Positions 6,559 to 42,147 of a stretch of 64,000 nucleotides of DNA are shown piece after piece (the first letter of the stretch is position 1; the number at the start of each line of letters is the position of its first letter). The DNA lies in assembly GCA_026395055.1 (NCBI GenBank), contig JAPLZK010000004.1, forward strand, positions 209,432-273,431, given 5' to 3'. The notes under the pieces are model-generated. The model ran no database searches, was not told the DNA's origin, and was given only the letters and a program-made list of their open reading frames with translations. Both the position numbers and the translations under genes were made by a program. Origin of the DNA: Candidatus Uhrbacteria bacterium (lineage in GTDB: Bacteria > Patescibacteriota > Patescibacteriia > UBA9934 > GWF2-40-263).

Positions 6559-7461
6559 TTATGTTTCATTGCGAGGAGTCATTGACGAAGCGATCTTTTC
6601 GCCCGTTTCGGGACTGACGGTTTCCTGTTTAACCAAAGGGCCTCGCGTTTCTCTTAGATGTTTATACAGGAGCGTCATGTACGTTGCAAGCAGAGGGATT
6701 GCAACGATTTCTACGATGGATTGTAAGAGATCAAGCCAAGCAGGGAGTTGATTTTGTGCGGCAATTTTTACAGGATCTACTCCAGCTGCCGCGCCGGAAA
6801 TGGAGATGATGAGCGCGACGATGACAGAATAAACAAATCCAATAAGGACAGGTCCTCCAACCAGACGATAAAGAACAGAGAAGAATCTTCCCTCAGAAAG
6901 TGATCGACTAAATTTAAGAGCTTCCATTCCGTGTTTACCATCCAGCACAGCAGACGTTTGGGCAAATGCAAACCAAATGATCGCAATGAATCCTGGAATG
7001 ATGAGAAGGATAAAACCGAGAAGGACGAGCAGAATGTGCAAGAGGAGAACGCGTGCTGTGGGTTGTAAAAGCGTTTTGGAATATTTTTTAAGCCCCATGG
7101 CATCAAACGGTTGTTTTTCTACAAGGGCGTTTACAATCAAAATCAAAATGATTCCAGTCCAGAAGGTGATCATGAATTCTGCAACAGAACACAGAAGATC
7201 AAGTGTGACGACGATAGGATTTTGTTCTGGAAAAAAACTTAAAACAAAATAACCGGCAAATGGAAGAAGAAGCCACGCTGTGTAACCAATCATCAGCCAA
7301 AAATTTGAGCGATACAATTGTAGGCTTAGGAAAACAAGATCGAGCGGAGAACGAAGCGGTGTCTTATTCCTGCCTGCCGGCAGGCTAGGCGCTTTGTTCG
7401 GTGAGGCTTTGGTAAAGGAGAACATCAGATAAGAAAATAAGTGGATTGAGAAAAATCGCAA
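6559..7461 (-). CDS. polytopic integral membrane protein, paralog A of the adjacent gene
   Basis: Multiple TM helices. The shared motif is (K/M)EALK.SR.L(T/S)EG(K/R)F(W/F)SVL. The true start may be an internal Met at 7425 or 7293, because the ORF-track start overlaps the upstream paralog. Confidence 0.6.
   Translation of the reverse strand: MRFFSIHLFSYLMFSFTKASPNKAPSLPAGRNKTPLRSPLDLVFLSLQLYRSNFWLMIGYTAWLLLPFAGYFVLSFFPEQNPIVVTLDLLCSVAEFMITFWTGIILILIVNALVEKQPFDAMGLKKYSKTLLQPTARVLLLHILLVLLGFILLIIPGFIAIIWFAFAQTSAVLDGKHGMEALKFSRSLSEGRFFSVLYRLVGGPVLIGFVYSVIVALIISISGAAAGVDPVKIAAQNQLPAWLDLLQSIVEIVAIPLLATYMTLLYKHLRETRGPLVKQETVSPETGEKIASSMTPRNET
7366..7392. repeat. GC-rich palindrome GCCTGCCGGCAGGC, copy 1
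   Basis: Perfect 14-bp palindrome at 7372-7385, overlapping the stop of the 7385..8263 gene. Copy 2 is at 8301-8327. Confidence 0.5.
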
Positions 7462-8263
7462 GGAGCATTGGGAGGATGGACGCAGTGAGTTCGCCTATGC
7501 GTTGTTGAACATCTAAGTTTAATCCTGTTGCGTTGATGATAAACGTGTTCAAAACAAGATTGATGAGAAGGATGATGAGAGCACCAAACAAGACGAAAAC
7601 CAGTTTTGGCAAAACAATACGAGCAAGGACACTCCAGAATTTTCCTTCTGTAAGGGTTCGGCTCTTTTTAAGAGCCTCTTTGTTTTTTGCGCGATCCAAA
7701 ATGGCTGCATAGGGCGCCATCATGTAATAAAGCGTCCATTTGGAAGTAAGAATTACGCTCACAATGAGTCCGATGATCAAAAGTCCATTTGCGACTCCAA
7801 GAATCCATGCGTTTTGCATCCAAAATCCGACAGCACCAAGAAGGAGGGAAGGACCGAGAGTGATCACTTGTGCAAGAAGGAGCGTGAGTCCAACAAGAGC
7901 GGTCACCGCAAGAGCTGGGAAATAACGTCTTTTGGTTTCTCTCATGACACTTGTAATACTCATTTGTTCACCGCGCAAAACAGATTTTGCTCCAATGGCG
8001 AGGGAAACGAAAACCCAGAAGCCTAAGAGGGGAGAAAGAATGATGTTCGTGAATCCGTATAAGATAACCCCCGTCACTTCATTAAAGGAAAAATTGGTAT
8101 GATACGCAATAGCACCTGCATTTGGATAAAGCAGTGTTGCAACCGCATTCAGAATGGCAATAAGGATGAGCCAACCTGAGAGTTGTAAAAAGAACGGAAG
8201 AGAAGAGCGATATTTATTCCACGATTGGTCAATAAGATCGCCGATGGAAATGAGAGGTTTCAT
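7385..8263 (-). CDS. polytopic integral membrane protein, paralog B
   Basis: About 290 aa with many TM helices. N- and C-terminal regions align with paralog A. Confidence 0.7.
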   Translation of the reverse strand: MKPLISIGDLIDQSWNKYRSSLPFFLQLSGWLILIAILNAVATLLYPNAGAIAYHTNFSFNEVTGVILYGFTNIILSPLLGFWVFVSLAIGAKSVLRGEQMSITSVMRETKRRYFPALAVTALVGLTLLLAQVITLGPSLLLGAVGFWMQNAWILGVANGLLIIGLIVSVILTSKWTLYYMMAPYAAILDRAKNKEALKKSRTLTEGKFWSVLARIVLPKLVFVLFGALIILLINLVLNTFIINATGLNLDVQQRIGELTASILPMLLAIFLNPLIFLSDVLLYQSLTEQSA

Positions 8264-21467: not shown

Positions 21468-21866
21468 ATGTCTACTCCAAATAAAACAGATAAAACAACT
21501 CAGGGTTTGCGCCTTGTTTCGTATTGTCCCGTTTGTGAAATTCGCTCCAAATCCATGAACGCTCGCACGCTAGCAGCGCAGGGCGAAACAAAACTCATGC
21601 ACATCCAGTGTCACAAATGCCAAAACGCGTTTCTCGCGCTCGTGCTCGTAAATCAGGTTGGGGCAAGTTCCGTCGGGCTCCTCACGGATCTTGCGTATGA
21701 TGATGTTGTTCGTTTTCGCTCGCACGCGGATGTAAGTGTAAATGATGTGATTGGTATTCATGAGCAGTTGGAACAAGGGTTGTTTCCTGTCACATTTGAG
21801 AAACCTCGAAAAACGGCTGTGAAGAAGGTGTTGGTAAAGAAAGCACGAAAAAAACTTGGAAAATAA
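21468..21866 (+). CDS. hypothetical zinc-ribbon protein with a K-rich tail
   Basis: CPVC...CHKC. Confidence 0.55.
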   Translation: MSTPNKTDKTTQGLRLVSYCPVCEIRSKSMNARTLAAQGETKLMHIQCHKCQNAFLALVLVNQVGASSVGLLTDLAYDDVVRFRSHADVSVNDVIGIHEQLEQGLFPVTFEKPRKTAVKKVLVKKARKKLGK

Positions 21867-21926: not shown

Positions 21927-22349
21927 TCACTTCTTTTTTTGAGAAGCGAGGCAGCAGCCGGTGGTGCGGATTTTTGGAATCTTGCACTGCGTTTCACTTT
22001 CCGGCGTTTCGAGCGCGCAGAAGTAGTGTTGGCACGTATCGGCCACATGTGCGAAGGTTTCGCCTTTGTCGCCTTGCAAGAATTCGATGACGTGGTAGCC
22101 CTTGAGACGACTCACATCGGAGCCACTGGTCACCACTTGCGTTTGGCCTTGATAGGTCCATTCGCAGGTGTAGTCCGCATGGGCTGGAGCAACACATCGT
22201 TCGACCGCGTGGGTTTCATGGCGAACTTCGTTGTTCGTCATGGGCGTGGTCTGGACGTTGTTCGAAGTGGTCGACGAGCAGCCGAAGCCGAGAATGGCCA
22301 CAAGGGCGAAAAAGATTGATCGAACCATGAAGGAACCTCCAATTGCCAA
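21927..22349 (-). CDS. hypothetical secreted protein or lipoprotein, Cys-rich
   Basis: Signal peptide with a lipobox-like LGFGCSS. The probable start is MVRSIFF at 22328. Confidence 0.55.
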   Translation of the reverse strand: MAIGGSFMVRSIFFALVAILGFGCSSTTSNNVQTTPMTNNEVRHETHAVERCVAPAHADYTCEWTYQGQTQVVTSGSDVSRLKGYHVIEFLQGDKGETFAHVADTCQHYFCALETPESETQCKIPKIRTTGCCLASQKKK

Positions 22350-22465
22350 GTGATACGCTATTTCACCGAGAACTCCTCGGCGGACAGTGCATCATTCACT
22401 CCAAATTAGCAGGGTTGACTTTTTTTCGCAGATTCCGCACAATACGGCCATATTTCATTAGAAGA

Positions 22466-22570
22466 GGCTATAGAAGCGTTAGAGGCAGTAAAGGCAATAA
22501 AGGCCGAACGGAAACGTGAAAGAAAATACGTTTTTAGAAGCCTTTATCGCATTTATCGCCTTTATAGCCT
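22466..22570 (+). promoter_or_regulatory. inverted arrays of a 9-bp repeat (4 forward units at 22469-22504, 3 reverse units at 22540-22566) around a 35-nt spacer, upstream of rplY
   Basis: Forward units are tatagaagc, gttagaggc, agtaaaggc and aataaaggc. Reverse units are gcctttatc, gcatttatc and gcctttata. The arms are mutually complementary, giving a long imperfect hairpin. Confidence 0.45.
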
Positions 22571-22594
22571 TCCACCCGCCCATAATTTTCCCCT

Positions 22595-23269
22595 ATGTCC
22601 ACATTTACCCTCGCGGCAGATAACCGAACACTCGTTGGTCGCAAAACCCTCAAGCTTCGTGAAGCAGGCAAAGTTCCTGCCGTTGTTTACGGTTCTGGAA
22701 CAGAACCAAAAATGATCACGGTTGATCGCAATCAATTCGTAAAGACTTACAAAGATGCTGGTGAAAGTACCATCGTCGAGCTCGCTGTAAACGGCGGAAG
22801 CCCACTTCACGTTTTGATCCAAGACTTTCAATTGGATCCATTGCGTGACGAAGTTACCCACATCGATTTCCGCTCTGTCGACATGACAAAGGAAATTGAA
22901 GCAGAAGTGGAACTCGAGTTCGTTGGAGAATCAATGGCCGTGAAAGCTCTTGGAGGAACATTCGTTCCATCAAAAGATTCTGTATTGGTTCGTTGTTTGC
23001 CTGCAAAACTTGTTCGTAAGCTTACAATCGACATTTCCATTCTTAAATCGTTTGATGACGTGATCCGTATCTCAGACATCGCGATTCCGGAAGGAATGAC
23101 CATTGAAGACGATGCAAACACAACACTTGCAGCGGTACAAGCTCCACGTTCTGAGGCAGAAATGGCTGACTTGGATAAAGTTCTTGAACTGGATGTCACC
23201 GCCGTTGAAGTAGAAAAGAAAGCAAAAGAAGATGCAGATGCTGCGGCAGCTGCAGAAGCAAAAAAATAA
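22595..23269 (+). CDS. rplY: 50S ribosomal protein L25 / general stress protein Ctc, with a long acidic C-terminal extension
   Basis: L25 N-terminal pattern (R...GK...R..GK.PAV.YG). CATAAT lies 8 nt before the ATG, suggesting a leaderless transcript. Confidence 0.85.
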   Translation: MSTFTLAADNRTLVGRKTLKLREAGKVPAVVYGSGTEPKMITVDRNQFVKTYKDAGESTIVELAVNGGSPLHVLIQDFQLDPLRDEVTHIDFRSVDMTKEIEAEVELEFVGESMAVKALGGTFVPSKDSVLVRCLPAKLVRKLTIDISILKSFDDVIRISDIAIPEGMTIEDDANTTLAAVQAPRSEAEMADLDKVLELDVTAVEVEKKAKEDADAAAAAEAKK

Positions 23270-23294: not shown

Positions 23295-24371
23295 ATGTTT
23301 CAAAAATTAAAACACAAGTACGCTCACGCACGTGCGAGCCAGAAAAAAATCTGGCTCCTGACTTGCGTCGGGATCGTACTTGTGTTTTTGATTGTGATGA
23401 CTGCGTTGTTTGTTGTTCGATCACACAACAAACCAACATCGAGTGTCTCGTCTGTGCCAGAGTCGGGTGCCACACAAGTTCGCGACCCTCTTACAGGCAT
23501 GTTTGTTGATCAGGTGCATGCGAACCAACAAGTGTATGGCGTCATGATCGATGAACATGTGGACGCTCGTCCACAAAGCGGAATCGACCAGGCATTCTTG
23601 GTTATCGAAGCGCCGGTCGAAGCGGGGATTCCACGCCTGCTCGCCTTTTTCTCACAAGACGAAAAGGTTGATAAGATCGGACCAATCCGATCTGCTCGCC
23701 CTTACTATGTTGATTGGGCTCTTGAGTTTGGTGCGCTTTACACACACGTTGGTGGTTCAAACGAAGCACTCGACAAAATCACAACTGGGGCCACGTTTGA
23801 CTTGAATCAATTTTGGCATGATCCGCAATTTTGGCGATCGACAGATCGAGATGCACCACATAACGTCTATACTTCGACCGATCGACTTGGGGCTTACGTG
23901 AAAGCAAAACAGGATGCCGGTCGACCAGCGCCACTTTATGGTGTGTGGAAATTTAAAACGACAAAACCTGAAGAGGTTTTTCCATCACGATTTACCATTA
24001 GCTATACAAATCCAGATTATGTGTTTTCTTGGGGGTACGATGTTGCACAAAAAACATATGTTCGATTGTTTGATGACCAGATCATGAAAACAAAAGAGGG
24101 AAATGAAATTCATGCCGATAATGTGGCGGTCGTTATCACAGATGTTGCGGTGATTGATACGTATGGCAGAAAATCCGTTCGCACAACAGGGCAGGGGACA
24201 GCATATGTCTTTCAGGATGGAACAAAGACAGAAGCGATTTGGAAAAAACCCACCGCATCTGAACGCCTGAGATTTTTTAACAAGGATGGAACAGAAATGG
24301 AAATGAATCCAGGCCACACCTGGATTGAGGTGATCGGAGATGAATCGCAATTGAATCATCTTGAGCCATAA
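23295..24371 (+). CDS. DUF3048-domain protein (YerB-like), N-terminal TM anchor
   Basis: PRLLAFF...IGPIRSARPYY block typical of DUF3048. The start was moved to MFQKLKH. Confidence 0.7.
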   Translation: MFQKLKHKYAHARASQKKIWLLTCVGIVLVFLIVMTALFVVRSHNKPTSSVSSVPESGATQVRDPLTGMFVDQVHANQQVYGVMIDEHVDARPQSGIDQAFLVIEAPVEAGIPRLLAFFSQDEKVDKIGPIRSARPYYVDWALEFGALYTHVGGSNEALDKITTGATFDLNQFWHDPQFWRSTDRDAPHNVYTSTDRLGAYVKAKQDAGRPAPLYGVWKFKTTKPEEVFPSRFTISYTNPDYVFSWGYDVAQKTYVRLFDDQIMKTKEGNEIHADNVAVVITDVAVIDTYGRKSVRTTGQGTAYVFQDGTKTEAIWKKPTASERLRFFNKDGTEMEMNPGHTWIEVIGDESQLNHLEP

Positions 24372-24410
24372 GAAAACCGTCACTCAAATGCGAGTGACGG
24401 TTTTATATTT
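24372..24410. terminator. bidirectional terminator aaaaccgtcactc-aaatgc-gagtgacggtttt
   Basis: Sits between the convergent DUF3048 gene and prmC. Confidence 0.65.
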
Positions 24411-25311
24411 CTGCGATTACAATGCGGTCATTTTTTTGCAGGTCTTTTTCTGTTCGTGTAACAGCTTCTGGAAAATAATGTTTAATGAGCTTCACAGACC
24501 GATCTGTTTGATCGGGATCGATTTCGATGAAGACGAATATATTTCTAGGCAGAATCTCCCGATGTTTTTTAAATTGTCGAAATAAGTCCCAGTAGGCATC
24601 TAGGCCATCCACACCCGCCACAAGCGCGCGTACGGGTTCAAAACGGACATCTGGATCAAGGATATCCATTTGTGCTGTGGTGAGATAGGGGAGGTTTGCG
24701 CAGACGATGAGGTCTTTGAATGGATAGACAGATGAAATATTTGGATTGCCGGATGCACGGATGGTTTGAAAGAGATTGATGAGTGGTTCAAGAAGTGAGC
24801 CGTGTTGAAAGTCAATGTGCTCTTCGACCTCGAATGTTTGTGCGTTTCGTTTTGCGGTGATTAACGCGGATTGGTCGATATCAACTGCAAGGACGGGGGT
24901 TTGAGTTTCTGCAGCAAGCGTTACAGCGATCGCTCCAGATCCTGTTCCGATATCCACAAAGAGTGTTTTATCTCGGTCACATGTCGAGAATACATCGAGT
25001 GCTTGTTCAATCATGACTTCTGTTGCAGGGCGAGGAATCAAGACGGAGGGATCCACAAAGAAGTCACGGCCGTAGAATCCTTTTTTGTTTATAAGGTATG
25101 CAACAGGTTCGTGTTTGAGTCGACGGTCCACCAGAATGAAGAACTTTTCTTCTTGATGTGGCTTGAGGTCATCTGCAATGTGTCCAAACAGCCATGATTT
25201 TGGGACCTCTAAAACAGACGCGAGCAAGAGTTCTGCGTCCAGCATGGGAGATTCGATCCCTACTTTCTTTAACTTATTGTTGGCCCATTGAAGCGCCTCA
25301 AGGATTGTCAT
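24403..25311 (-). CDS. prmC: release-factor glutamine N5-methyltransferase (PrmC/HemK)
   Basis: GTGSGAIAV SAM motif. NLPY substrate motif, equivalent to NPPY. Confidence 0.85.
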   Translation of the reverse strand: MTILEALQWANNKLKKVGIESPMLDAELLLASVLEVPKSWLFGHIADDLKPHQEEKFFILVDRRLKHEPVAYLINKKGFYGRDFFVDPSVLIPRPATEVMIEQALDVFSTCDRDKTLFVDIGTGSGAIAVTLAAETQTPVLAVDIDQSALITAKRNAQTFEVEEHIDFQHGSLLEPLINLFQTIRASGNPNISSVYPFKDLIVCANLPYLTTAQMDILDPDVRFEPVRALVAGVDGLDAYWDLFRQFKKHREILPRNIFVFIEIDPDQTDRSVKLIKHYFPEAVTRTEKDLQKNDRIVIAEI

Positions 25312-25339
25312 GCGTTCTACAGTATGGTATTTTCGGAAT

Positions 25340-26060
25340 TTTTACAAAAAGAAAGAGACCCGCAAGGAGTCTCGAGAAGAGAGGGGTGAAAAAGATTCCT
25401 GCGAATCCGAAGGGTTCCTGTTTTGGCGAGGTGTTGTCTTGATCGACTGAATGTTTTTTGAGGACGTCCAGTTGGTGACCGAGATGTTGACTTCGTTACT
25501 AGCAGAGAACCCTTCGGAACGCAACTTGATGTCATTGTTCTTTTGAGGGAACGGCACCAAGAAAGTGGTTAGACGAGCAAGCTCATCGTTTTGTTTTAGC
25601 GAGTTTTCAGGTTCGCTTTAACAGAGTTCGCACGATCGCGGTTCAAGTCTTGCGACTTTGGCTTGAGCATTCCATATCTTGCGACTGGGTTTTGCTTGGC
25701 GTGAACGTTGAAAGGGAACTGTTCCACTTTGGATACGATGGTAATTTTGAACATTCGTTCGGCGACAGTACTTGACCGTCATCTACGAATTGAGCTTGCA
25801 CTCTGTCCAATTTCTCACCGGGTCACCAAGCTGTAGCTGGTTCAAGTTGGTCCGGAGACCTATACGTACGCTTTCGCACACGTAGACTGGGAGTTGTCTC
25901 TCCCGATTCGTTGACCGAAGTCATTGAATCACTTGTTTGGTCATTGAAGACCCATGCAACGAGCGAGCTCGCTTGCACGTGAGAGTAATCTCTCAAGATT
26001 CGCACGACCGAAGCCGTTTGAATCGCCAGGCGTTTGTTCTTGCGAACGTCAGCTGAAGGT
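25340..26060 (-). ncRNA. candidate ~0.7-kb non-coding transcript, class unknown
   Basis: An 870-bp region with no ORF above ~90 aa in any frame. The minus strand has a TTGACG-17-TATTAT promoter at 26067-26095 and a hairpin plus U-run terminator at 25339-25372. Internal imperfect direct repeats are present. Confidence 0.3.
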
Positions 26061-26066
26061 TTTGAA

Positions 26067-26095
26067 ATAATATACGAATAAAATACGAGCGTCAA
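26067..26095 (-). promoter_or_regulatory. minus-strand sigma70-like promoter TTGACG-17-TATTAT
   Basis: -35 at 26095-26090 and -10 at 26072-26067, both read on the minus strand. Confidence 0.4.
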
Positions 26096-26135
26096 ATGGT
26101 ATCTGTGGATAACTCATCGTCTAATCTAAATTAAC

Positions 26136-26176
26136 ATAAAATAAATCACTCGAATGATCGAGTGATTTATTTTATC
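26136..26176. terminator. bidirectional terminator aaataaatcactcg-aatgat-cgagtgatttatttt
   Basis: Perfect 12-bp stem with symmetric A/T runs, 3' of the nucleotidyltransferase gene. Confidence 0.7.
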
Positions 26177-26187
26177 CGCGCAATTTT

Positions 26188-40609: not shown

Positions 40610-40867
40610 ATGTCTGATAAAGAAACAAAAATTTCCTTGCATATTGAATTACTTGAACAAGCGCAGTCGCTCATGACCGCGGGTTTTGCGCTCGTTGCTG
40701 CCCTTGCGTGGAATACAGCCATTCAAGATCTTTTTAAACTTTTGTTTCCGGATCAGAGTTCTCTCATTGCAAAATTTCTGTACGCCCTGTTGATTACGCT
40801 TATCATGATTGTTGTGACACGACGTTTAGGAAAAACGATCTCTGCTTTGAAATCAAAAATTAAGTAA
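40610..40867 (+). CDS. hypothetical small membrane protein
   Basis: 85 aa with two hydrophobic helices. Confidence 0.5.
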   Translation: MSDKETKISLHIELLEQAQSLMTAGFALVAALAWNTAIQDLFKLLFPDQSSLIAKFLYALLITLIMIVVTRRLGKTISALKSKIK

Positions 40868-40887: not shown

Positions 40888-42147
40888 ATGTCCTACAAAA
40901 TCGAATCCATTCATGCGCACGAGATTCTTGATTCACGTGGAAATCCAACGGTAAATGTCACGGTGCTTCTTGAAGATGGAACAAGTGGATCCGCGTCTGT
41001 CCCAAGCGGGGCATCAACAGGAATTCATGAAGCGCTTGAATTGCGTGATGGAGACATGAAGCGTTATGGAGGACAGGGGGTGTTGAAGGCCGTAAAGAAT
41101 GTAAATGGTCCTATTGCAAAGGTGCTGATTGGAATGGACGTTACGGATCAGCGCAAACTAGATGTAACCATGATTGCGCTTGACGGAACACCAAACAAAT
41201 CGAAACTTGGAGCAAACGCGATTCTTGGTGTCTCGCTTGCGTGTGCACACGCAGCGGCACGTGCAAAGAAAATGCCGCTGTACGCATACCTTCGATTGGC
41301 ATTCGATTTGCCCTACAAAAATTACCGCATGCCAATTCCAACCATGAACGTGTTGAATGGGGGGGCACACGCAGGATGGATTTTGGATTTTCAAGAGTTC
41401 ATGATTGTTCCAACCCAAAAGAAATTCAAAGAACGTGTGCGTTGTGGGGCAGAAATTTTTCACGCCCTTGGCGGACTCTTGAAGAAAAAAGGCTTTTCAA
41501 CATTGAAAGGAGATGAGGGTGGGTACGCAGTTCCATTTAAGAAGAACGAAGATGCCTTTGTGGCGATCATGCAAGCAATCAAACTTGCAGGGTACAAAGC
41601 AGGCAAAGAAGTTTTTCTTGCAATGGATCCAGCTGTCTCTGAACTTTTTGATAAAAAAACAAATCGTTACAAACTTCGTGTCGACAAGAAGTCGAATACT
41701 TCAAAAGACATGATTGCGATGTGGACAAAGTGGCTCAAGAAGTATCCAATCATTTCTCTTGAAGATGGATTGGATCAAGATGATTGGGCTGGATGGACAG
41801 AGATGACCAAGCAACTTGGAAAGAAAACTGTTCTTGTTGGCGATGACTTCTTTGTCACAAATTCAAAACGTCTCGCACAAGGAATCGAAAAGAAAGCGGC
41901 GAACGCAATTCTAATCAAGCTGAACCAAATTGGTTCCTTGTCCGAGACGATCGACACAATCTTGCTCGCGCAACAATACGGCTACAAAGTTTCCGTTTCA
42001 CACCGCTCTGGAGAAACGGCAGACACAACGCTTGCGGATCTTGCGGTTGCGGTGAATGCGGACTATATCAAGACGGGATCCTTGTCGCGCTCTGAGAGGC
42101 TCGAAAAATATAATCGTGTGATGGAGATTGAAGAAGAGGTCTCGTAA
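40888..42147 (+). CDS. eno: enolase
   Basis: IESIHAHEILDSRGNPTV and the full enolase signature. Confidence 0.95.
   Translation: MSYKIESIHAHEILDSRGNPTVNVTVLLEDGTSGSASVPSGASTGIHEALELRDGDMKRYGGQGVLKAVKNVNGPIAKVLIGMDVTDQRKLDVTMIALDGTPNKSKLGANAILGVSLACAHAAARAKKMPLYAYLRLAFDLPYKNYRMPIPTMNVLNGGAHAGWILDFQEFMIVPTQKKFKERVRCGAEIFHALGGLLKKKGFSTLKGDEGGYAVPFKKNEDAFVAIMQAIKLAGYKAGKEVFLAMDPAVSELFDKKTNRYKLRVDKKSNTSKDMIAMWTKWLKKYPIISLEDGLDQDDWAGWTEMTKQLGKKTVLVGDDFFVTNSKRLAQGIEKKAANAILIKLNQIGSLSETIDTILLAQQYGYKVSVSHRSGETADTTLADLAVAVNADYIKTGSLSRSERLEKYNRVMEIEEEVS

Follow-up and report, generated by a model that had tools for sequence, protein, structure and literature searches.

Inverted tandem-repeat arrays upstream of rplY as a probable, lineage-specific hairpin in the mRNA leader in a Candidatus Uhrbacteria sub-clade

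Palindromic repeat insertions in 5′ untranslated regions (UTRs) are known from the Correia elements of Neisseria, which are processed by RNase III, and hairpin-forming 5′ UTR insertions are known for palindromic mobile elements. Quasi-palindrome template-switch mutagenesis and replication slippage are likewise known, as a mutational mechanism. To our knowledge, almost nothing has been learned about gene regulation in the uncultivated Candidate Phyla Radiation (CPR). For rplY, the gene of ribosomal protein L25, the enterobacterial 5′ UTR has been described; it is conserved, and it mediates the repression by L25 of its own translation (Aseev, Bylinkina and Boni 2015; PMC4408793).

Here we analyze a pair of inverted arrays of 9-nt repeats that lie ahead of rplY in a Candidatus Uhrbacteria bacterium (Patescibacteria/CPR), an assignment with which the homologues of its L25 agree. 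The whole stretch of DNA analyzed, 64,000 nucleotides (64 kb), is referred to as the window. The original prediction had offered two readings of the arrays, namely a long hairpin in RNA or an iteron-like operator in DNA, and had set them over the -35 region of a probably leaderless promoter. We conclude that the inverted arrays most likely fold into an RNA hairpin, specific to this lineage, in the 5′ UTR of rplY, and are not a repressor-binding array on its promoter. The features of the locus, all on the + strand, are as follows.

22415..22443, + strand: P1, the conserved rplY promoter, from a promoter scan; TTGACT (22415-20), a 17-nt spacer and CACAAT (22438-43)
22450..22460, + strand: 5′ end of the leader, predicted to be single-stranded; sequence AUAUUUCAUUA
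22461..22504, + strand: purine-rich 5′ arm of five 9-nt units, GAAGAGGC, TATAGAAGC, GTTAGAGGC, AGTAAAGGC and AATAAAGGC
22505..22539, + strand: apical region of 35 nt, with a small A/U-rich stem in which 22510-18 is paired with 22527-35
22540..22575, + strand: pyrimidine-rich 3′ arm of four 9-nt units, GCCTTTATC, GCATTTATC, GCCTTTATA and GCCTTCCAC
22576..22594, + strand: 3′ tail of the leader, which holds CATAAT (22581-86), the possible -10 of a second promoter, P2
22595..23269, + strand: rplY, encoding a long CTC/TL5-type ribosomal protein L25 of 224 aa (Pfam Ribosomal_L25p and TL5_C)

When the sequence was re-read, the repeats were found as they had been described. The left units (tatagaagc at 22469-77, gttagaggc at 22478-86, agtaaaggc at 22487-95 and aataaaggc at 22496-504) and the right units (gcctttatc at 22540-48, gcatttatc at 22549-57 and gcctttata at 22558-66) stand where the original prediction had put them, as do the 35-nt spacer at 22505-39, the CATAAT at 22581-86, 8 nt ahead of the ATG at 22595, and the element as a whole, immediately upstream of rplY. 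The arrays are in fact a little longer than had been claimed, by one extra degenerate unit each, GAAGAGGC (22461-68) on the left and GCCTTCCAC (22567-75) on the right. Both period-9 arrays are reported by TRF, and a repeat search recovers the inverted arms in several 9-nt registers with 77-93% complementarity, including 31 nt at 77%, 25 nt at 80% and 22 nt at 82%. The 9-periodic pattern RRRGGC-N3 x3 has a single occurrence in the 64 kb, and none of 100 shuffles contains it. A likeness of the units to DnaA boxes was considered and rejected; they fit the TTATCCACA consensus at only 5 of 9 positions, as judged by eye, and the likeness is absent in relatives. An upstream ORF or leader peptide was rejected as well: the GTG of the window and the ATG of its relative L004 lie in different frames and are unconserved, and the leader of another relative, L003, has no start codon.

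The position of the arrays relative to the start of transcription was assessed by comparison. About 140 rplY loci were gathered from genomes and metagenomes, and the L25 start and the best promoter match were located in each of them. The motif TTGAC[T/N]-17-CA[C/T]AAT is found in nearly all Uhrbacteria rplY loci with an L25 identity of at least 50% (about 50 loci). In the Uhrbacteria loci at no more than 72% L25 identity, and in L144, the ATG follows the end of the -10 box at a distance of 17-27 nt (35-51 nt in a few loci), which gives most Uhrbacteria a leader of about 10-20 nt. [quoted passage not shown] Because P1 is conserved upstream of it, the array most likely lies in a 145-nt 5′ UTR, and not on a -35 box. 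Transcription from P1 is predicted to begin at about A22450, as we infer from the conservation of the promoter. Leaders are short or absent in this genome, in which a structured leader of 145 nt is exceptional. Like the short leaders of other Uhrbacteria, the rplY leader of the window is without a Shine-Dalgarno sequence; an SD-like motif is found in 11 of the 69 ORFs of the window.

The neighbors of rplY are genes for a DUF3048 protein, PrmC, FtsW/RodA and a Zn-ribbon protein, and a lipoprotein-like ORF, and several other observations were made among them. The product of the Zn-ribbon gene (21468-21866), 132 aa in length, is conserved, carries a CPVC...CHKC zinc ribbon and matches no Pfam family; in Uhrbacteria and other Patescibacteria the gene keeps its syntenic place between ftsW/rodA and rplY. 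Where it lies directly upstream of rplY, a G+C-rich terminator hairpin (aaccccgtaag...cttacgggg) abuts the rplY -35 box (L004 ~2290-2330, L142 ~510-550, L140 1-40), and the TTGACTTTTTTT of the promoter appears to double as the U-tract of that terminator. Just upstream of the rplY -35, at 22410/22411, about 101 bp are missing from the window that are carried by the otherwise identical L001 (514-614) and L002 (1-~97), and also by L003, L005, L141 and L007. Where present, this segment includes a hairpin (gtgttttgtgtc...gacaaaacac) and, on the minus strand, a promoter-like site, TTGACA-17-TATTCT, that faces the divergent lipoprotein-like ORF (21927-22349 in the window); since the segment is absent from the window, the promoter of this ORF appears to have been deleted in this strain. 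Downstream, the roughly 875 nt between prmC and the next gene (25312-26187) have no ORF longer than 90 aa and no Rfam match at E <=1, and no other 120-nt segment of the window folds as stably as one that lies in them (25401-25520, -57.5 kcal/mol). The same gene-free gap follows prmC in L001; an undescribed ncRNA or the remains of a gene may account for it. Two further long imperfect inverted repeats were seen, one at 40613-40757 with 37-nt arms, which is intergenic and precedes the gene at 40888, and one at 23300-23397 with 29-nt arms, toward the 5′ end of the coding sequence for the DUF3048 protein, in the gene that directly follows rplY.

The extra DNA in the long leaders sits between a conserved ACGGCCATATTT just past the -10 box and the last few bases before the ATG. 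This flank is common to all members of the clade and to L144 (76% L25 identity), in which it is followed by a 24-nt unstructured leader with no hairpin; that is, L144 looks like the empty site. The inserted blocks of the relatives have a purine-rich 5′ half and a pyrimidine-rich 3′ half in every case, and their units differ. L003 (96% L25 identity) has GAGAGGC / GCCTCTC, aligned unit for unit with the array of the window; L139, L142, L143 and L005 have GAAG-rich / CTTC-rich units with a period of about 8; and L141 and L148 have G-rich / C-rich units. The order of the halves was considered as a directional signal and rejected, as purine-arm-first orientation is the same on both strands and is partly due to A-tract/T-tract terminators in the scan. 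Identical leaders were found across independent samples (window = L001 = L002; L003 = L083; L004 = L140; L005 = L084 = L085 = L087), and the site is therefore not a hypervariable slippage locus.

Folded as RNA, 22450-22600 has a minimum free energy of -41.6 kcal/mol (z = -4.45), and none of 200 dinucleotide shuffles does as well. When each arm is shuffled separately, such that the asymmetry of purines and pyrimidines is kept, the result is the same (z = -4.4; 0 of 300 as good). The predicted stem has about 44 pairs and is an imperfect helix with regularly spaced non-canonical positions. The claim that the arms are able to form a long, imperfect RNA hairpin of about 100 nt is thus upheld, with a fold z of about -4.4. 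Among the relatives, the leaders of L004, L003, L139, L142, L143 and L148, like that of the window, beat their dinucleotide shuffles (z from -3.3 to -5.2), and the weak folders of the clade are L005, L141, L086 and L146 (z from -0.6 to -1.7). Seven of nine leaders (L148 was not among the nine) also beat shuffles that preserve the composition of the arms, with z from -2.75 to -6.3. In an alignment of the window, L004 and L003, 88.8% of the cells are paired on the structure of the window, versus 53.6% at most when the partners are slid. The original prediction had set conservation of the 9-nt periodicity against conservation of base-pairing as the comparison to make across orthologues; pairing is mostly kept, whereas the period (8-9) and the units are not. 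Column-wise covariation in the three sequences of that alignment is not significant, with three double-sided changes and 76 of 500 shuffles reaching the observed pairing. The antisense strand folds as well as the sense strand or better in 8 of the 9 leaders, with more G-U pairs (40 vs 23), and the asymmetry of G-U and A-C gives no strand-specific RNA signal in these nine. Because the antisense strand folds equally well, nothing ties selection to the sense RNA rather than to a DNA palindrome. A terminator scan detected no intrinsic terminator or attenuator in 22450-22594; there is no U-run, and the main stem is followed by CCACCCGCCC. Nor does the leader resemble an RNA thermometer of the ROSE or fourU type, in that it has no SD to sequester and the AUG lies outside the predicted stem.

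The leader has diverged more slowly than synonymous sites. Between the window and L004, the four-fold degenerate sites of rplY are 56% identical (n = 108), and the leader and the promoter are 89% and 90% identical, respectively, i.e., the divergence of the leader is about 4 times slower than that of the four-fold sites. Identity falls to 47% in the 150 nt ahead of the -35, because the genomic context there is different. Within the leader, about 4 of 80 positions differ in the arms (about 95% identical) and about 12 of 59 in the loop and tail (about 80% identical), the apical region being the least conserved part. The pair L139 and L143 behaves likewise, at 77% identity for the leader and 47% for the four-fold sites. 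These comparisons point to purifying selection on the paired structure of the leader. The original prediction had named absence of the array from close relatives as evidence against it; the array is present in them, and is better conserved than neutral sites. A caution applies to L004, whose coding sequence is nearer to L003 (four-fold identity 0.70) but whose leader is nearer to the window, as a result of which a short recombination tract could mimic constraint. Such a tract would have to match the promoter-plus-leader segment of about 180 bp, because the upstream Zn-ribbon gene has also diverged.

Hairpins of similar build are found elsewhere. A scan based on TRF, over 705 kb of sequence from Patescibacteria loci, detected 14 pairs of tandem arrays in inverted orientation (periods of 7-9 nt), compared with 0, 0 and 1 in three dinucleotide shuffles; direct orientation was seen in 4 pairs. 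Most of the 14 pairs are followed by an ATG within about 10-30 nt or immediately by a TTGAC -35 box. The hairpins recorded at other genes are these.

L048, 368-448, 777-846 and 2713-2778: inverted array hairpins
L055, 469-581, 2393-2450 and 4452-4543: inverted array hairpins
L074, 4628-4745 and 5046-5125: inverted array hairpins
L040, 1933-1995: inverted array hairpin
L142, 1-104; L005, 711-808 (also in L084 and L087); L091, 1461-1555: hairpin of inverted 8-nt tandem repeats in the leader of the Zn-ribbon gene

The Zn-ribbon hairpin lies between the promoter of that gene and its ATG, with GTCAAAAA/GTCGAAGA as its units in L142 and L005, and these leaders fold with z = -8.1 (L142) and z = -4.7 (L005). 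The Zn-ribbon gene of the window itself has a 30-nt leader in place of the hairpin. That the same type of hairpin occurs at other gene starts argues against a binding site specific to L25 and for a common mutational origin. Tentatively, and with less conviction than we attach to our favored account of rplY itself, we suggest a Patescibacteria-wide class of stem-loops made of inverted 7-9-nt tandem arrays, which would originate and expand in place at gene 5′ ends, whether in leaders or before promoters, by slippage and template switching, and might be kept as evolvable tuners of expression in genomes that lack SD-led initiation and mostly have very short or absent leaders.

It is against this background that the foremost alternative has to be weighed, namely that the block is a tolerated by-product: a quasi-palindromic minisatellite, generated by slippage and template switching in a permissive spot, that has no regulatory role and persists only because a self-folding block does not disturb a short-leader mRNA. 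We consider this possible but unlikely. The slow divergence of the leader relative to four-fold sites, with arms better conserved than the loop, speaks against it, and so do the complementarity in excess of what arm composition predicts in 7 of 9 leaders and the persistence of the element across lineages whose synonymous sites are near saturation. It would nonetheless accommodate the extreme sequence turnover between close relatives, the equal folding of both strands, the decayed, weak hairpins of some members and their absence from L144, as well as the same architecture at unrelated gene boundaries in several Patescibacteria. The passages searched in a published survey, which place Ca. Uhriibacteriota among the phyla with a high density of inverted repeats (PMC13155455), also fit a by-product.

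A further alternative draws on the analogy with E. coli, where L25 represses its own translation through a 5′ UTR without a canonical SD (PMC4408793). By that analogy, the hairpin would imitate helix IV and loop E of 5S rRNA, and L25 in excess would bind to it and repress translation of rplY. The element does lie in the leader of a monocistronic rplY, and the regularly spaced non-canonical positions of its imperfect helix would suit such a mimic. We nevertheless find this improbable. The original prediction had pointed to the Rfam ribosomal-leader models for a ribosomal-protein autoregulatory element; no such model matches the window or its relatives, and searches at E <=10 on 22300-22700 and at E <=1 on about eight relatives returned only sub-threshold, miRNA-precursor-like hairpin noise. 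No Rfam family matches anywhere in the 64-kb window at gathering thresholds, and no 5S rRNA gene was found in the window or in the fetched loci. Moreover, there is no clade-wide motif that a protein could recognize or that could serve as a 5S mimic, most Uhrbacteria are without a structured rplY leader, and equivalent hairpins precede the non-ribosomal Zn-ribbon gene and other genes.

Turning to the reading at the level of DNA, the repeats would be bound by a repressor as an operator, or iteron-like array, that extends over the region upstream of the CATAAT at 22581-86, the -10 of a leaderless promoter. The position of this box, 8 nt before the ATG, is like that of -35-less -10 boxes that end 7-9 nt before the ATG at several genes of the window (7385-8263(-), 19358, 24403-25311(-), 48866, 57415 and 59143), which suggests that leaderless or near-leaderless mRNAs are made in this genome. 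L004 has TATAAT in the same place, and L005, L139, L142 and L143 have in common a conserved CTTCTTTATTCT, whose TATTCT precedes the ATG by 7-10 nt. A role in DNA would also be compatible with folding that shows no asymmetry between the strands. We judge an operator to be very doubtful all the same. The CATAAT has no -35-like partner, the hexamer at the -35 position being GCCTTT, which is unlike TTGACA; a -10-like box is present at that position only in the window and L004, and L003, L141 and L086 have no good -10 there. The fully conserved P1 upstream indicates instead that the array is transcribed, and the claim that it overlaps the -35 of a leaderless promoter is therefore not supported; with respect to the unconserved CATAAT, the array may still overlap a putative -35 position. 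The repeats are not conserved as a recognition motif either: units differ between strains with 96% identical L25, the period is 8 or 9, and the unit is ATAAAGGC in the window, GAGAGGC in L003 and GAAGGAAA or GAAGAAG in L142 and L139. No gene for a DNA-binding protein is evident among rplY and its DUF3048, PrmC, FtsW/RodA and lipoprotein-like neighbors. With its units unconserved among close relatives and its probable place in the transcribed leader, the array does not behave as the proposed iteron-like operator.

A second promoter is a separate matter. Given the lack of SD usage in the genome, the -35-less boxes near the ATG of other genes and the CTTCTTTATTCT motif in relatives, a leaderless-type P2 at CATAAT is possible in this strain, although it is not the conserved signal. 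If used, it would make part of rplY expression independent of the hairpin. The base at position -1 is a pyrimidine in 40 of the 41 ATG-start genes of the window; the idea that the 3′ arm sequesters, or is an expanded form of, a general pyrimidine-rich landing tract for ribosomes is no more than speculative, as the pyrimidine fraction at -12 to -1 is 0.52, with no enrichment genome-wide. Finally, we regard it as highly improbable that the leader has received phage-derived DNA or one copy of a mobile element of the dispersed palindromic kind (REP, MITE or Correia type). The block is indeed an insertion relative to the short ancestral leader, but has no second copy of unit or array in the 64-kb window, no match for an exact 30-nt right-arm query in 2.9 million viral contigs and no evident target-site duplication, and has its own units in each lineage, which fits evolution in situ over a shared mobile sequence.

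Taken together, these data lead us to favor, somewhat above an even chance, a transcribed, cis-acting stem-loop in the 5′ UTR that was gained in one sub-clade of Uhrbacteria and is kept by selection for pairing, and that modulates the initiation of rplY translation, the stability of the mRNA, or both. In this proposed mechanism, the rplY mRNA would be transcribed from TTGACT-N17-CACAAT (22415-22443), with the arrays as the two arms of a stem-loop in its 145-nt leader. The block of self-complementary short tandem repeats would have grown inside a short ancestral leader in the clade of the window. Because the arms share their period and copy number, replication slippage and intrastrand template switching are the probable means of this growth, the latter copying changes from arm to arm; selection would then keep the block folded. 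We infer both an action at the level of RNA and the direction of its effect: in cis and after transcription, the hairpin would set or gate the access of ribosomes to the 5′-proximal AUG, and/or it would set the half-life of the mRNA, for example as a double-stranded substrate of RNase III. Its role would not be that of a DNA site recognized by a protein through its sequence. The predicted stem is longer than the minimum of about 20 bp of imperfect double-stranded RNA that characterizes an RNase III-processed leader, and processing of the modeled stem of about 44 pairs by this enzyme is a possibility.

Taken alone, a lineage-specific structured leader is a modest finding. The locus also offers, at one conserved promoter, a natural series that runs from the ancestral leader of about 20 nt and the empty site of L144 to the repeat-built hairpins of 60-145 nt in close relatives, and this series could be used in reporter work on how structure in a leader without a Shine-Dalgarno sequence relates to initiation. 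If the wider pattern holds, it would represent a characteristic route by which reduced genomes create and remodel cis-regulatory RNA structure.

Compared with known systems, the element of the window belongs to no RNA family described so far, although in its proposed mode of action it resembles other structured leaders of ribosomal-protein genes and other hairpins inserted in 5′ UTRs. By their defining features it is not an iteron array, a terminator or a thermometer, and within the 64 kb it lacks the multiple copies of a dispersed palindromic element. With the iterons and operators of plasmids and phages it has in common short, regular direct repeats in two opposed blocks near a promoter; unlike them, its repeats are unconserved as a motif and lie downstream of the promoter, with no cognate protein gene or replicon context. 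The survey of inverted repeats in the CPR, in the passages searched, reports a genome-wide excess of hairpin repeats that includes Ca. Uhriibacteriota and is enriched near the ends of transcription units; it counted perfect inverted repeats, and those passages do not mention arms of tandem repeats or the rplY leader (PMC13155455). Quasi-palindrome template switching would explain the equal period, similar copy number and concerted change of the arms, that is, the origin of the element and not its function. As in Correia elements, a long imperfect double-stranded RNA stem, here a predicted one, lies between promoter and start codon, and altered processing and stability of the mRNA would be expected from it. 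Correia elements are, however, dispersed, conserved in sequence and mobile, with terminal inverted repeats, whereas the element of the window is single-copy in 64 kb, lineage-specific and built of 8-9-nt tandem units. With the rplY leader of E. coli (PMC4408793), there is no similarity in sequence or by covariance model, and the hairpin of the window differs from it in being made of inverted tandem repeats, in turning over and in being confined to one sub-clade of Uhrbacteria. What the two have in common is a structured 5′ leader ahead of a monocistronic rplY, without a canonical Shine-Dalgarno sequence; and action after transcription, which is a feature of the leader in E. coli, is what we propose for the leader of the window.
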